DNA of 41,498 nucleotides, taken from NCBI RefSeq assembly GCF_003334305.1, contig NZ_QOWS01000030.1; one strand, written 5' to 3'. Source of the DNA: Escherichia coli (GTDB lineage: Bacteria > Pseudomonadota > Gammaproteobacteria > Enterobacterales > Enterobacteriaceae). A program made the translations under genes and the position numbers. Below the pieces are notes generated by a model. That model did no database searches. It saw only the letters and a program-made list of their open reading frames with translations, and had not been told where the DNA came from. Shown here one piece after another: positions 14,649 through 27,166 of this stretch (position 1 is its first letter; the number at the start of each line of letters is the position of its first letter).

Positions 14649-14756
14649 TATGTGATCAATTTCACTTGATTGAAATTATTTGTATTGTATTTGTATTATT
14701 TACAGGATGAATTTATCGGGCATAATGGCTAAATTCGTATTAATGAGATACTAAAA
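14649..14756. promoter_or_regulatory. Divergent mngA/mngR promoter-operator region with direct and inverted repeats
   Basis: Inverted repeat AATTTCA-N6-TGAAATT within tgatcaatttcacttgattgaaatt (14653..14677) and direct repeats tgtattgtatttgtatta (14681..14698); candidate MngR (GntR family) operators. Confidence 0.45.
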
Positions 14757-24444: not shown

Positions 24445-24791
24445 CACACACCCCACACCACAACGAATCCATAAATCACGTAAACCACCAGTGCAACGAC
24501 AATCACCAGTTGCAGCATCAGGCGCAATGCCAGCGGTTTAACGTAGTCGGTCAACACCTGCCACATGCCGATCCAGGCATGAATCAAGATAGAAAACAGC
24601 GCCAGCAGGGTGAACACTTTGGTGAACGCAGAGGCGAAGAAACCGATCCAGACTTCATATGTCAGTTCGCCACTGGTGGCGAAAAAACCGACCATATAAA
24701 TGATGTAGAGCGTCAGGACGATAGCGGTAGCGCGAACGAGGATGAAATCATGTACGCCATTGCGTCCTAATGCGGAGGCGTTGCTTACCAT
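24444..24791 (-). CDS. sdhD: Succinate dehydrogenase hydrophobic membrane anchor subunit, 115 aa
   Basis: ORF 24444..24791 minus; [37 protein letters not shown]... Confidence 0.95.
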
Positions 24792-25174
24792 ACGAGGACT
24801 CCTGCGAGAAGTGAAAGCACGACAGTAATAACAAAGGAGGTTTTGGCGGAGCGTTTACCCGCTTCGAATGTTTCTTCCAGATAGCCAAAATCCATCATCA
24901 TGTGGCGAATACCTACGACGACGTGATACGCCAGAGCGGTAAGGATGCCCCACATGATAAATTTGACGAAGAAGCTGCCCATAATCGCGGAAGCTTGCTC
25001 GAAACCTTCAGGGGAAGAGAGGCTGGTACCCAGAAGCCACAGCAGGATGCCCACTGCAACAAAGGTGATCACACCGGAAACGCGATGGAGAATGGACGCT
25101 ATCGCCGTGATGGGGAACCGGATGGTCTGTAGGTCCAGATTAACAGGTCTTTGTTTTTTCACATTTCTTATCAT
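24785..25174 (-). CDS. sdhC: Succinate dehydrogenase cytochrome b556 subunit, 129 aa
   Basis: ORF-track entry 24785..25189 begins [12 protein letters not shown]; recognised SdhC begins [34 protein letters not shown], so the start is set at the second Met. Confidence 0.93.
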
Positions 25175-25882
25175 GAATAACGCCCACATGCTGTTCTTAT
25201 TATTCCCTGGGGACTACGGGCACAGAGGTTAACTTTCTGTTACCTGGAGACGTCGGGATTTCCTTCCTCCGGTCTGCTTGCGGGTCAGACAGCGTCCTTT
25301 CTATAACTGCGCGTCATGCAAAACACTGCTTCCAGATGCGAAAACGACACGTTACAACGCTGGGTGGCTCGGGATTGCAGGGTGTTCCGGAGACCTGGCG
25401 GCAGTATAGGCCGTTCACAAAATCATTACAATTAACCTACATATAGTTTGTCGGGTTTTATCCTGAACAGTGATCCAGGTCACGATAACAACATTTATTT
25501 AATTTTTAATCATCTAATTTGACAATCATTCAACAAAGTTGTTACAAACATTACCAGGAAAAGCATATAATGCGTAAAAGTTATGAAGTCGGTATTTCAC
25601 CTAAGATTAACTTATGTAACAGTGTGGAAGTATTGACCAATTCATTCGGGACAGTTATTAGTGGTAGACAAGTTTAATAATTCGGATTGCTAAGTACTTG
25701 ATTCGCCATTTATTCGTCATCAATGGATCCTTTACCTGCAAGCGCCCAGAGCTCTGTACCCAGGTTTTCCCCTCTTTCACAGAGCGGCGAGCCAAATAAC
25801 AAACGGGTAAAGCCAGGTTGATGTGCGAAGGCAAATTTAAGTTCCGGCAGTCTTACGTAATAAGGCGCTAAGGAGACCTTAA
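25175..25882. promoter_or_regulatory. Divergent sdhC / gltA control region (708 bp)
   Basis: Long AT-rich intergenic region between divergently transcribed sdhC (minus) and gltA (plus); contains a CRP-like motif and several GTTAA-type boxes. Confidence 0.7.
25469..25484. promoter_or_regulatory. CRP-like site (aGTGAtccaggTCACg) upstream of sdhC
   Basis: Sequence agtgatccaggtcacg, a TGA-N6-TCA dyad approximating the CRP consensus TGTGA-N6-TCACA; sdhC is reported to be CRP-activated. Confidence 0.4.
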
Positions 25883-27166
25883 ATGGCTGATACAAAAGCA
25901 AAACTCACCCTCAACGGGGACACAGCTGTTGAACTGGATGTGCTGAAAGGCACGCTGGGTCAAGATGTTATTGATATCCGTACTCTCGGTTCAAAAGGTG
26001 TGTTCACCTTTGACCCAGGCTTCACTTCAACCGCATCCTGCGAATCTAAAATTACTTTTATTGATGGTGATGAAGGTATTTTGCTACACCGCGGTTTCCC
26101 GATCGATCAGCTGGCGACCGATTCTAACTACCTGGAAGTTTGTTACATCCTGCTGAATGGTGAAAAACCGACTCAGGAACAGTATGACGAATTTAAAACT
26201 ACGGTGACCCGTCATACCATGATCCACGAGCAGATTACCCGTCTGTTCCACGCTTTCCGTCGCGACTCACATCCAATGGCAGTCATGTGTGGTATTACCG
26301 GCGCGCTGGCGGCGTTCTATCACGACTCGCTGGATGTTAACAATCCTCGTCATCGTGAAATTGCCGCGTTCCGCCTGCTGTCGAAAATGCCGACCATGGC
26401 CGCGATGTGTTACAAGTATTCCATTGGTCAGCCATTTGTTTATCCGCGCAACGATCTCTCCTATGCCGGTAACTTCCTGAATATGATGTTCTCCACGCCG
26501 TGCGAACCGTATGAAGTTAATCCGATTCTGGAACGTGCTATGGACCGTATTCTGATCCTGCACGCTGACCATGAACAGAACGCCTCTACCTCCACCGTGC
26601 GTACCGCTGGCTCTTCGGGTGCGAACCCGTTTGCCTGTATCGCAGCAGGTATTGCTTCACTGTGGGGACCTGCGCACGGTGGTGCTAACGAAGCGGCGCT
26701 GAAAATGCTGGAAGAAATTAGCTCCGTTAAACACATTCCGGAATTTGTTCGTCGTGCGAAAGATAAAAATGATTCTTTCCGCCTGATGGGCTTCGGTCAC
26801 CGCGTGTACAAAAATTACGACCCGCGCGCCACCGTAATGCGTGAAACCTGCCATGAAGTTCTGAAAGAGCTGGGCACCAAAGATGACCTGCTGGAAGTGG
26901 CTATGGAGCTGGAAAACATCGCGCTGAACGACCCGTACTTTATCGAGAAGAAACTGTACCCGAACGTCGATTTCTACTCTGGTATCATCCTGAAAGCGAT
27001 GGGTATTCCGTCTTCCATGTTCACCGTCATTTTCGCAATGGCACGTACCGTTGGCTGGATCGCCCACTGGAGCGAAATGCACAGTGACGGTATGAAGATT
27101 GCCCGTCCGCGTCAGCTGTATACAGGATATGAAAAACGCGACTTTAAAAGCGATATCAAGCGTTAA
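25883..27166 (+). CDS. gltA: Citrate synthase (type II), 427 aa
   Basis: ORF 25883..27166 plus; [72 protein letters not shown]... Confidence 0.97.

Follow-up and report, generated by a model that had tools for sequence, protein, structure and literature searches.

The gltA–sdhC divergent control region of Escherichia coli: a CRP site common to both promoters and a predicted Spot 42 pairing site on an ERIC-derived remnant

What does the long spacer between the divergent genes sdhC and gltA contain, and is the CRP-like dyad within it a working site or a chance resemblance? The DNA analysed is a stretch of 41,498 nt from Escherichia coli (contig NZ_QOWS01000030.1 of assembly GCF_003334305.1), referred to here as the window. 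The spacer covers 708 bp (25175..25882) between sdhC on the minus strand, with the K-12 start codon at 25172..25174 (first base of the ATG at 25174), and gltA on the plus strand, with its ATG at 25883. PGAP places the sdhC start at an in-frame ATG 15 nt further upstream (25189..25187), by which the spacer would be 693 bp; the corresponding locus of Serratia sp. is without the 15 nt that bear this upstream ATG. The initial annotation ranked the spacer as one of the longest divergent promoter regions of the window. By the gene order of MG1655 it is the longest, the other divergent spacers being those of dtpD/ybgI (270 bp) and mngR/mngA (108 bp), and the only longer gap is the co-directional one between mngB and cydA (846 bp).

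The spacer is found in all 5,426 of 5,426 complete E. coli genomes at an identity of at least 95%. Compared with MG1655 it carries three SNPs (25412, 25800 and 25858), which leave the cores of the mapped sites untouched; the SNP at 25412 falls in the spacer of the sdhC promoter, at the edge of an ArcA site. The window as a whole is not collinear with MG1655, because of indels, and BLAST aligns the two in four blocks at 96–99% identity. The AT-rich stretches described initially are real: GC content is 0.22–0.40 over approximately 25390..25690, against 0.51 for the whole window. Conservation was measured in 80 Enterobacteriaceae sequences, a set that includes the window and 75 non-Escherichia genomes, with identity at 4-fold sites (0.54–0.57) as the baseline. 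Identity across the whole spacer is 0.74–0.80, compared to about 0.55 at synonymous sites, indicating purifying selection throughout. At the gltA end, the Shine-Dalgarno sequence AAGGAGA and the start codon occupy 25870..25885 (plus strand), and the block GCGCTAAGGA at this ribosome-binding site (25865-74) is 100% conserved.

The K-12 gltA-sdhC region in RegulonDB and EcoCyc (gltAp1/p2, sdhCp, CRP and ArcA sites) has the same gene order, CRP 16-mer, ArcA operators and promoter hexamers, and the spacer is almost certainly the canonical gltA-sdhCDAB-sucABCD divergent control region of E. coli. The window comes from a non-K-12 strain, and compared with the K-12 region there is no difference of substance beyond the three SNPs. 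Both the control region and its CRP dyad are already known, and are textbook E. coli. As submitted, the observation matters little, since the region it identifies anew is among the best characterised in the regulation of this species' central metabolism. It has value as a positive control, the CRP site having been located to the exact base by a reader of the sequence only, and the footprint across the 80 Enterobacteriaceae genomes marks the constrained bases of the spacer.

The CRP dyad

A TGA-N6-TCA dyad at 25469..25484 had been noted for its resemblance to a CRP site, and it proved to be identical, letter for letter, to the CRP site recorded in RegulonDB. This CRP-cAMP site (AGTGATCCAGGTCACG; 22-mer at 25466..25487) is common to both divergent promoters, and is identified by RegulonDB, genomic SELEX, the weight matrix and conservation. 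In MG1655 coordinates the dyad occupies 754867-754882. It has the form (A)GTGA-N6-TCAC(G), or AGTGA-TCCAGG-TCACG, and agrees with TGTGA-N6-TCACA at 8 of the 10 core positions. The RegulonDB sites given in Table S4 of Shimada 2011 include an activator site at −83.5 for sdhCDAB-sucABCD (CGTGACCTGGATCACT) and one at −107.5 for gltA (AGTGATCCAGGTCACG). Genomic SELEX with cAMP-CRP yielded one CRP site between the two genes, namely the dyad (Shimada 2011). The mapped site coincides with the motif, and the published mapping thus gives no reason to discard it. Measured on the window, the distance between the dyad and sdhC depends on the transcription start that is chosen, being −83.5 from 25393 and −80.5 from 25396, while the distance from gltA p1 is −107.5. 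The activating positions of class I CRP sites are near −61.5, −72.5, −82.5 or −92.5.

The CRP motif alone is not beyond chance. Scored with a CRP weight matrix trained on 68 other RegulonDB sites, a check that the initial annotation had proposed, the dyad is the best match in the region (8.8 bits), ranks 10th among 41,483 window positions and exceeds 69% of the training sites. Even so, one in five (20%) of shuffled 708 bp regions reach the same score, and matches to TGTGA-N6-TCACA with two mismatches are not enriched in the window (12 observed, 17 expected). Such figures speak for a functionless, chance CRP-like match, with CRP control of the two genes being indirect. This explanation is nonetheless very improbable in view of the pattern of conservation. 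Across the 75 non-Escherichia genomes, which represent more than 20 genera, the half-sites are essentially invariant (identity of 1.00 for the left and 0.97 for the right), whereas the 6 bp between them are free to vary, their identity of 0.52 being close to the 4-fold-site baseline and so indicating drift at the neutral rate. RegulonDB also curates this 16-mer for both promoters, and cAMP-CRP retrieved it in genomic SELEX. It is because of this conservation and the published mapping, and not the motif score, that the dyad is judged to be real.

Another member of the Crp/Fnr family, FNR, might be the main user of the dyad, since GTGAT-CCAG-GTCAC agrees with TTGAT-N4-ATCAA at 7 of 10 positions, and an effect of fnr on sdhC is mentioned by both Miyakoshi 2019 and Park 2013. 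The discriminating bases (G-T-G-A / T-C-A-C) are, however, of the CRP type and not the T-T-G-A of FNR, and Park 2013 ascribes the effect of FNR on sdhC to an indirect one, via the levels of ArcA-P. A scan with the FNR consensus gave only a weak site, with two mismatches, elsewhere in the region (25710-25723), and there is very little likelihood that FNR is the principal ligand. As a CRP site, the dyad resembles those of araBAD-araC, glpEGR-glpD and xylAB-xylFGHR, single-CRP divergent pairs in which one dimer activates both promoters, as here; gltA-sdhCDAB is itself among the 11 such pairs listed by Shimada 2011. Compared with the other single-CRP pairs, the gltA-sdhC spacer is unusually long, both genes have leaders of 215–300 nt, and ArcA operators lie on both sides of the CRP site.

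ArcA operators, promoters and small ORFs

Two deconvolved ArcA ChIP-seq peaks are reported in the gltA-sdhC spacer, and deletion of arcA raises sdhC 133-fold and gltA 7.1-fold (Park 2013). The supplement of the same study gives two ArcA-P operators, both on the minus strand: one of four direct-repeat elements on the sdhC side (25411..25464; −71..−18 from the sdhC start), which overlaps the promoter, and one of three elements on the gltA side (25516..25547; −68..−37 from gltA p1). An 18 bp ArcA-box matrix that was built without the two tested sites scored 15.9 bits at 25530-47 on the gltA side and 14.3 bits at 25414-31 on the sdhC side, with further repeats adjoining at 25519-36 and 25425-42. 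The published ArcA sites map onto the region, with matrix ranks of 3 and 5 in the window. At least two TGTTA-type direct repeats, spaced 11 bp from centre to centre, are present in each operator, and the density of ArcA-box matches in the region is 14 times that of the window. Conservation of the sdhC-side operator is 0.91.

The initial annotation had linked ArcA control to AT-rich stretches with GTTAA-type boxes. The control itself is borne out by the ChIP-seq peaks, the matrix sites and the arcA deletion, but GTTAA was only loosely the right cue. Four GTTAA pentamers occur where 1.9 are expected, a difference that is not significant (p ~0.15), and only one of the four (25432-25436) is inside a mapped ArcA site. 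The gltA-side site is built of GTAAC, GTTGA and GTCAA variants. A scan of the region for Fur boxes, also suggested initially, found none, the best match (13/19) being inside an ArcA site, and the absent box fits iron control through RyhB.

Comparison with mapped transcription starts, another of the checks put forward initially, gave two closely spaced positions for sdhC and two separate starts for gltA. The sdhC start (25393..25396, minus strand) is at 25393 when deduced from the RegulonDB CRP distance of −83.5, and at 25396, with a UTR of 222 nt, in the genome-wide start-site profiling of Kim 2012. Both agree with the sigma-70 promoter found by scanning (25403..25431, minus strand), which consists of a −35 hexamer TTGTAA (25431..25426), a 17 bp spacer and a −10 hexamer TATACT (25408..25403). 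The two hexamers are 100% conserved in the 75 non-Escherichia genomes.

On the plus strand, the reported start of gltA p1 is at 25584 (−299 from the ATG), a position derived from the CRP distance of −107.5 and the ArcA limits of −68..−37. The probable −35 (TTACAA, 25542-47) and −10 (TATAAT, 25566-71) hexamers of this promoter (25542..25584), as read from the sequence, show a conservation of 0.97–1.00. Because the gap of 13 nt between the −10 and 25584 is long, the true start may be a few nt further upstream. A downstream gltA promoter (25633..25668, plus strand) has the hexamers TTGACC (25633-38) and TATTAG (25656-61), conserved at approximately 0.9–1.0, and initiates at A25668 to give a UTR of 215 nt. 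This is the sole gltA start in the set of Kim 2012, from which the upstream start at 25584 is absent. The main genome-wide start, 25668, had been missing from the initial annotation.

The 'intergenic' region is also not purely non-coding, as it holds two annotated small ORFs that had likewise been overlooked. The ybgU gene (25570..25677, plus strand, MG1655 annotation) encodes a 35 aa small protein; its ATG overlaps the −10 hexamer of gltA p1, and all mapped gltA starts are downstream of it. Translation from this ATG would require a transcript that begins before 25570, for which TTGACA (25519-24) and TACAAA (25543-48), 18 bp apart, form a candidate promoter. The ybgV gene (25661..25693, plus strand, MG1655 annotation) has a GTG start, encodes a small protein of 10 aa and overlaps, in a different reading frame, with the 3′ end of ybgU. 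The strong conservation from 25570 to 25693 could then reflect protein-coding constraint on YbgU and YbgV instead of a role as promoter or leader, given that both are annotated in MG1655, that published work has found them as tagged proteins and in ribosome profiling, and that a YbgU-like frame of 33–35 codons is open in 34 of the 80 genomes. Several features make this unlikely. Conservation of ybgU is flat by codon position (0.74 / 0.79 / 0.76). In 22 of 80 genomes, ATT, ATA or GTT stands in place of its ATG, and in 38 of 80 its frame is shortened to at most 26 codons. The length of the ybgV ORF swings from 1 to 49 codons across genera, and the conserved blocks fall on the −35 and −10 hexamers that serve the start at 25668. 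With promoter and leader function as the preferred explanation, the spacer presents two expressed small ORFs with no coding signature outside Escherichia.

The region holds two sigma-70 promoter systems, back to back, around a common AT-rich core that measures about 190 bp. When glucose is absent, one cAMP-CRP dimer at the dyad would activate both promoters, from upstream distances of about 80–84 bp for the sdhC start and about 107 bp for gltA p1. At low oxygen, ArcA-P would repress both from operators overlapping the sdhC promoter and the −35 region of gltA p1. Post-transcriptional control would act on the leaders, which are long in both mRNAs: about 220 nt in that of sdhC, and either 215 or about 300 nt in that of gltA. 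According to the literature, Spot 42 would pair about 50 nt upstream of the sdhC AUG and recruit Hfq to an AU-rich stretch by the ribosome-binding site; RybB and RyhB would pair nearer the start codon, leading to mRNA decay, and Spot 42 would target the gltA leader as well, using the same seed. In this scheme, the identity of the site sequences, their coordinates, the conservation pattern and the sRNA complementarity come from the present analysis, and protein binding, the direction of regulation and the Hfq mechanism from the literature. Site coordinates were taken from the supplements of Shimada 2011, Park 2013 and Kim 2012, and footprint limits and the exact pairing sites of RyhB and RybB are second-hand or computed.

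sRNA complementarity and an ERIC remnant in the leaders

The sdhC leader had been described initially as a target of RyhB, Spot 42 and RybB. Control of the leader by all three is in the literature (Miyakoshi 2019; Azam & Vanderpool 2018; both citing Desnoyers & Masse 2012), and seed complementarity was above chance for Spot 42 and RybB, but that of RyhB near the start codon was at the level of chance. Complementarity was scored for 28 nt windows sliding along the leader against the seed regions of the sRNAs, with 40 shuffles. Whole-molecule RNAduplex runs of each sRNA against the full leader produced duplexes with giant loops, none above shuffles, and were replaced by the sliding windows.

The predicted Spot 42 pairing site is at −70..−43 from the AUG of the sdhC mRNA (25217..25244, minus strand) and has a 12 bp core, ACCUCUGUGCCC (25229..25218). 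Its duplex energy is −28.4 kcal/mol, against −19.0 ± 1.9 for shuffles (0/40 as strong). The part of the leader next to the start codon (25181..25208, minus strand) contains a run of A-R-N triplets, the best complementarity to the 5′ end of RybB (25208..25183) and a weak complementarity to RyhB. A check of the ribosome-binding region for sRNA pairing had been suggested at the outset, and RybB complementarity there exceeded that of shuffles (−22.7 kcal/mol against −16.6 ± 2.3; 0/40). RyhB pairing near the sdhC start codon, at −17.3 kcal/mol, was not above chance in the sliding-window scan.

The (A-R-N)n run, AAU AAU AAG AAC (25204..25193, minus strand), is of the AU-rich Hfq site type and is a candidate for such a site. 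It lies 4–15 nt upstream of the AUG at 25189, and 19–30 nt upstream of the K-12 start at 25174. Published work has Hfq recruited to an AU-rich stretch near the sdhC ribosome-binding site. In the non-canonical repression of sdhC by Spot 42 and Hfq, as a citing paper describes the work of Desnoyers & Masse 2012, pairing occurs about 50 nt upstream and Hfq is the direct repressor. The computed Spot 42 site at −70..−43, together with the A-R-N run by the start codon, matches that published description. The folding stability of the sdhC leader is not unusual (z = +0.58), and an Rfam scan of 25000–26000 at E ≤ 1 returned nothing. RNAalifold gave a long-range helix, 5′ UCUCCGG with CCGGAGG, in which all pairs are invariant, so that covariation speaks neither for nor against it.

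The predicted Spot 42 pairing site falls within an ERIC remnant of about 56 nt, shortened by an internal deletion, in the sdhC 5′ UTR (25202..25257, minus strand; boundaries ± 3 nt), which was recognised by alignment to full copies. ERIC sequences, the enterobacterial repetitive intergenic consensus elements of transcribed intergenic regions, are imperfect palindromes of about 127 bp, with a central core that corresponds to the ERIC1R and ERIC2 primers. The remnant has kept its two ends alone, of about 24 and 28 nt, and the central core is absent; a search of the whole window for an ERIC core found none, the best primer matches being 14–15/22. Five genomes (Lelliottia, Huaxiibacter, Leclercia, K. 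spallanzanii and isolate RIT714) have a full ERIC of about 121 nt at the orthologous position, and its ends are the same. Along their entire length, these full copies are 69–70% identical to ERIC copies dispersed in E. coli, one of which matches the ERIC1R and ERIC2 primers at 21/22 each. The ends of the remnant are 88–96% identical to the long copy of RIT714. Because the core is absent and only the ends align to full copies, the element is filed as an ERIC-derived remnant and not as an ERIC element. It is present in 15 of the 80 sequences (the window, 4 Escherichia, 2 Salmonella and 8 Citrobacter), possibly also in Intestinirhabdus, and 59 of the 80 have no insert at this position.

The location of the Spot 42 site on a clade-restricted ERIC remnant may be new, and no statement of it was found in the literature searched. 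Relative to the system of Desnoyers & Masse 2012, what differs here is that the pairing site is placed on an ERIC repeat confined, in its internally deleted form, to Escherichia, Salmonella and Citrobacter. A joint reading, considered moderately likely, is that an ERIC inserted in the sdhC 5′ UTR and lost its core, that its right arm became the Spot 42 site, and that repression by Spot 42 is clade-specific. On insertion, the element would have separated the conserved block GGAGGAAGGAAA from the A-R-N/Hfq site, and the core would have been lost in the ancestor of Escherichia, Salmonella and Citrobacter, with the right arm CCUUCCUGUAACCC changing to ACCUCUGUGCCC, the sequence predicted to pair with Spot 42. 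If this is true, the repression that Spot 42 exerts on succinate dehydrogenase, linked to glucose and acting by recruitment of Hfq, would be an innovation of this clade, absent from Klebsiella, Enterobacter, Kluyvera and the other sampled genera, where the RybB/RyhB-proximal sequence is kept. A textbook Spot 42/Hfq mechanism placed on a repeat-derived insert that most enteric genera do not have would provide a natural test bed for the origin of sRNA targets.

The gltA leader carries GCUCUGUACCC (25751..25761, plus strand), found by the duplex scan, in which 10 bp are complementary to nt 4–13 of Spot 42, the same seed that pairs with sdhC. Taken alone, its duplex energy (−21.8 kcal/mol) does not exceed chance. 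All genera compared except Serratia have the identical sequence, and gltA is listed in the literature as a known Spot 42 target.

Far upstream in the sdhC leader, at −161..−134 of the mRNA (25308..25335, minus strand), the duplex scan gave a 13 bp complementarity to the RyhB seed, CUGGAAGCAGUGU, at 25335-25323. The duplex energy is −30.0 kcal/mol, against −18.3 ± 2.9 for shuffles (0/40), and raises the possibility of a second, unrecognised RyhB site. The match overlaps an 8 bp match to the 5′ end of RybB, and is kept at −20 kcal/mol or better in 31 of the 80 genomes.

Layout and promoters of the gltA-sdhC spacer

The initial annotation described the spacer between sdhC (24785..25174 with the K-12 start, − strand) and gltA (ATG at 25883, + strand) as a 708 bp divergent control region, one of the longest in the window. 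The length is exact with the K-12 sdhC start (693 bp with the PGAP start), and by MG1655 gene order this is the longest divergent spacer of the window, the only longer gap being the co-directional mngB-cydA spacer (846 bp). Annotations of sdhC differ, K-12 giving 129 aa from an ATG at 25174, and PGAP records 134 aa from an ATG at 25189 (− strand), the longer frame. A Serratia locus (L086) lacks the 15 nt bearing the upstream ATG, which favours the K-12 start.

Region 25175..25882 matched all 5,426 of 5,426 complete E. coli genomes by megablast, 4,378 of them at at least 99% identity, and is identical in several strains, e.g., E. coli W and a record labelled DH5alpha. The latter (L001, NZ_CP026085.1; chromosome 4.83 Mb) matches the window at 100% identity across the 708 bp, unlike MG1655, which has three base differences (25412, 25800 and 25858), and may not descend from K-12. 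The whole window, which is in reverse orientation relative to MG1655 (~738.8–780.3 kb), matches that genome in four collinear blocks of 96–99% identity, indicating a non-K-12 E. coli.

The sdhC start derived from the CRP position of −83.5 is 25393, and genome-wide start-site profiling gives A25396 (UTR 222 nt). Comparison with these mapped starts bore out the sole promoter-like match of the scan, TTGTAA-17-TATACT (25431..25403, − strand); its hexamers are correctly spaced for both starts and are 100% conserved. On the gltA side, the CRP (−107.5) and ArcA (−68..−37) positions agree on an upstream start, p1, at 25584 (−299 from the ATG), and a perfect TATAAT lies at 25566–71. Only A25668 (UTR 215 nt) was reported as a gltA start by Kim 2012, the p1 start being absent from that data set. 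The hexamers of the downstream promoter, TTGACC (25633–38) and TATTAG (25656–61) on the + strand, are both nearly invariant. The classic S1-mapped p2 start, 196 nt upstream of the ATG, presumably corresponds to about 25687. According to Quandt 2015, gltA mRNA falls about tenfold when one base, 182 bp upstream of the ATG, is substituted. This base is window position 25701 (+); it belongs to the transcribed leader, 33 nt past the 25668 start, and to no recognisable promoter hexamer.

CRP and ArcA sites

The CRP-like TGA-N6-TCA dyad noted at 25469..25484 (AGTGATCCAGGTCACG) is unremarkable on motif evidence alone. Twelve matches to TGTGA-N6-TCACA with two mismatches occur in the window, against 17 expected. 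In a CRP weight matrix trained on 68 other RegulonDB sites, the dyad scored 8.8 bits, which is the best match in the region, ranks tenth of 41,483 window positions and exceeds 69% of the training sites; 20% of shuffled 708 bp regions equalled this score. Two further lines of evidence settle it as a CRP site. The same 16-mer, in every letter, is a RegulonDB site at which CRP acts as activator (sdhCDAB-sucABCD −83.5, gltA −107.5; Shimada 2011, Table S4), so the mapped CRP site coincides exactly with the dyad. Genomic SELEX recovered it, and gltA-sdhCDAB was counted among 11 divergent pairs with a single CRP site (Shimada 2011). Conservation was assessed in 80 fetched Enterobacteriaceae loci, 79 spacers of which were aligned to the window. 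Across the 75 non-Escherichia genomes, AACAGTGA and TCACG are 100% invariant (0.97 over TCACGATA), and the six bases between the half-sites show 0.52 identity, with a neutral baseline at 4-fold degenerate sites in the same genomes of 0.54 (gltA) and 0.57 (sdhC). Conserved half-sites around a drifting spacer are the signature of a dimeric protein site. FNR was rejected as the protein bound here, the dyad having the CRP-type GTGA and not the FNR-type TTGA; the effect of fnr on sdhC was considered indirect by Park 2013.

A second RegulonDB CRP site, 'sdhDAB −13', lies inside the sdhC coding sequence (CGTCAAATTTATCATG; Shimada 2011, Table S4), and was found by eye in the window at about 24950..24979 (−). 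The top CRP matrix match of the window, TGTGATCAATTTCACT (14651..14666, 12.4 bits), falls inside the 108 bp mngR-mngA divergent spacer, as judged by MG1655 collinearity.

AT-rich stretches with GTTAA-type boxes had been noted as fitting reported ArcA control. Base composition agreed (GC 0.22–0.40 over about 25390..25690), and ArcA control itself is supported: the spacer holds two ArcA ChIP-seq peaks, to which Park 2013 assigned multi-repeat sites that map to 25411..25464 (four repeats, −71..−18 of sdhC) and 25516..25547 (three repeats, −68..−37 of gltA p1). Deletion of arcA raised sdhC 133-fold and gltA 7.1-fold (Park 2013). The GTTAA boxes proved a loose cue: the region has four such pentamers where 1.9 are expected (p about 0.15), and just one of them is within a mapped ArcA site. 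An 18 bp ArcA-box matrix was rebuilt from 113 Park 2013 boxes, excluding both boxes of the locus, and these still ranked third and fifth of all window positions; six matches of at least 10 bits fall in the region, 14 times the window density. The other top matches lie upstream of cydA. This gene is a known ArcA target, and the cluster in its long upstream spacer (9308..9809; 22.5, 16.1, 15.6, 13.3 and 13.3 bits) agrees with three ArcA ChIP-seq regions reported there. The Fur scan that had been proposed for the region gave no credible box (best match 13/19), which fits iron control via RyhB.

The initial observation is thus confirmed and its interpretation supported; the dyad, and control of the gltA-sdhC region by CRP, ArcA and small RNAs, are already known.

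Small ORFs and constraint within the spacer

The initial annotation overlooked two small ORFs that MG1655 annotates inside the spacer on the gltA strand, ybgU (25570..25677, 35 aa) and ybgV (25661..25693, 10 aa, GTG start). Both have been seen as tagged proteins and in ribosome profiling, and ybgV-gltA has been flagged as a possible case of upstream-ORF control. The ybgU ATG overlaps the p1 −10 TATAAT. Both mapped gltA starts (25584 and 25668) lie downstream of this ATG, and translation from it would need an unmapped promoter further upstream; one example of a candidate is the invariant TTGACA at 25519–24 with TACAAA at 25543–48. The ybgV GTG precedes the 25668 start by 7 nt. Among the 80 genomes, conservation showed no codon-position pattern in the ORFs (0.74/0.79/0.76), the ybgU ATG is substituted in 22 of them, ORF lengths vary widely, and the conserved blocks coincide instead with promoter hexamers.

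Spacers of non-Escherichia genomes share on average 0.74 identity with the window, a value that rises to 0.80 when the ERIC (enterobacterial repetitive intergenic consensus) remnant is excluded; synonymous sites stand at about 0.55. Conservation is 0.94 over the first 40 nt of the sdhC mRNA. Folding predicts a long-range helix that closes nt 1–128 of the leader, but covariation is uninformative because every pair is invariant. Stability of the sdhC leader was not unusual (z = +0.58) and no Rfam family was found in the region.

Small RNA pairing and the ERIC remnant

Published work identifies sdhC as a target of RyhB, Spot 42 and RybB, the first and last acting by triggering decay, and Spot 42, which pairs ~50 nt upstream of the start codon, by recruiting Hfq to the vicinity of the ribosome-binding site. 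MG1655 sRNA seed regions were paired with 28 nt sliding windows of the leader and compared with 40 shuffles. This agreed with the expected targeting for two of the three sRNAs: Spot 42 nt 3–16 at −70..−43 (25244..25217; −28.4 kcal/mol against −19.0 ± 1.9) and the RybB 5′ end at −34..−9 (25208..25183; −22.7 against −16.6 ± 2.3 kcal/mol), neither reached by any of the 40 shuffles. RyhB near the start codon, at −34..−7 (25208..25181), was at chance level (−17.3 against −18.3 ± 2.9 kcal/mol). The classic RyhB site is outside the region, at sdhC +342..381 over the sdhD ribosome-binding site (Masse & Gottesman). An A-R-N run, AAU AAU AAG AAC (25204..25193), adjoins the sdhC start codon.

A candidate RyhB match also occurs far upstream, at −161..−134 (25335..25308, − strand), with −30.0 kcal/mol against −18.3 ± 2.9 and none of 40 shuffles reaching it. 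It comprises 13 bp to the seed (CUGGAAGCAGUGU) and is overlapped by an 8 bp match to the RybB 5′ end. Of the 80 genomes, 31 keep it (from Escherichia, Citrobacter, Salmonella, Enterobacter and Leclercia); Klebsiella, Raoultella, Kluyvera and Yokenella have lost it. The Spot 42 seed that matches sdhC also has a complement on the gltA side, GCUCUGUACCC (25751–61), which is invariant across the genera shown, Serratia excepted; gltA is a listed Spot 42 target.

The sole poorly conserved stretch of the spacer, about 25205–25254 (identity 0.09–0.16), reflects a ~56 nt segment in the sdhC 5′ UTR (25202..25257, − strand) carried by 15 of 80 sequences (the window, four Escherichia, two Salmonella and eight Citrobacter loci). 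Intestinirhabdus has a short form that is more diverged, and 59 genomes lack the segment. A ~121 nt element with the same two ends occupies this spot in isolate RIT714 and in five genomes (two Lelliottia, Huaxiibacter, a Leclercia and K. spallanzanii). Each E. coli genome has one to five dispersed intergenic copies to which this long element is 69–70% identical over its full length; one such copy matches the ERIC1R and ERIC2 primers at 21/22 positions each. The shared ends and primer matches indicate that the segment in the window is an ERIC element with an internal deletion.

The computed Spot 42 site (25229..25218), which agrees with the published placement, is by sequence comparison the right arm of this remnant. 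Predicted duplexes are −23 to −30 kcal/mol in all remnant-bearing genomes; genomes lacking the remnant give background values (mean −17.7). No paper linking ERIC with sdhC was found in the literature searched, and this origin may be the one new item here, an evolutionary footnote to a known mechanism. An ArcA-box-like match (13.8 bits) also lies within the remnant (25226–25243, + strand).
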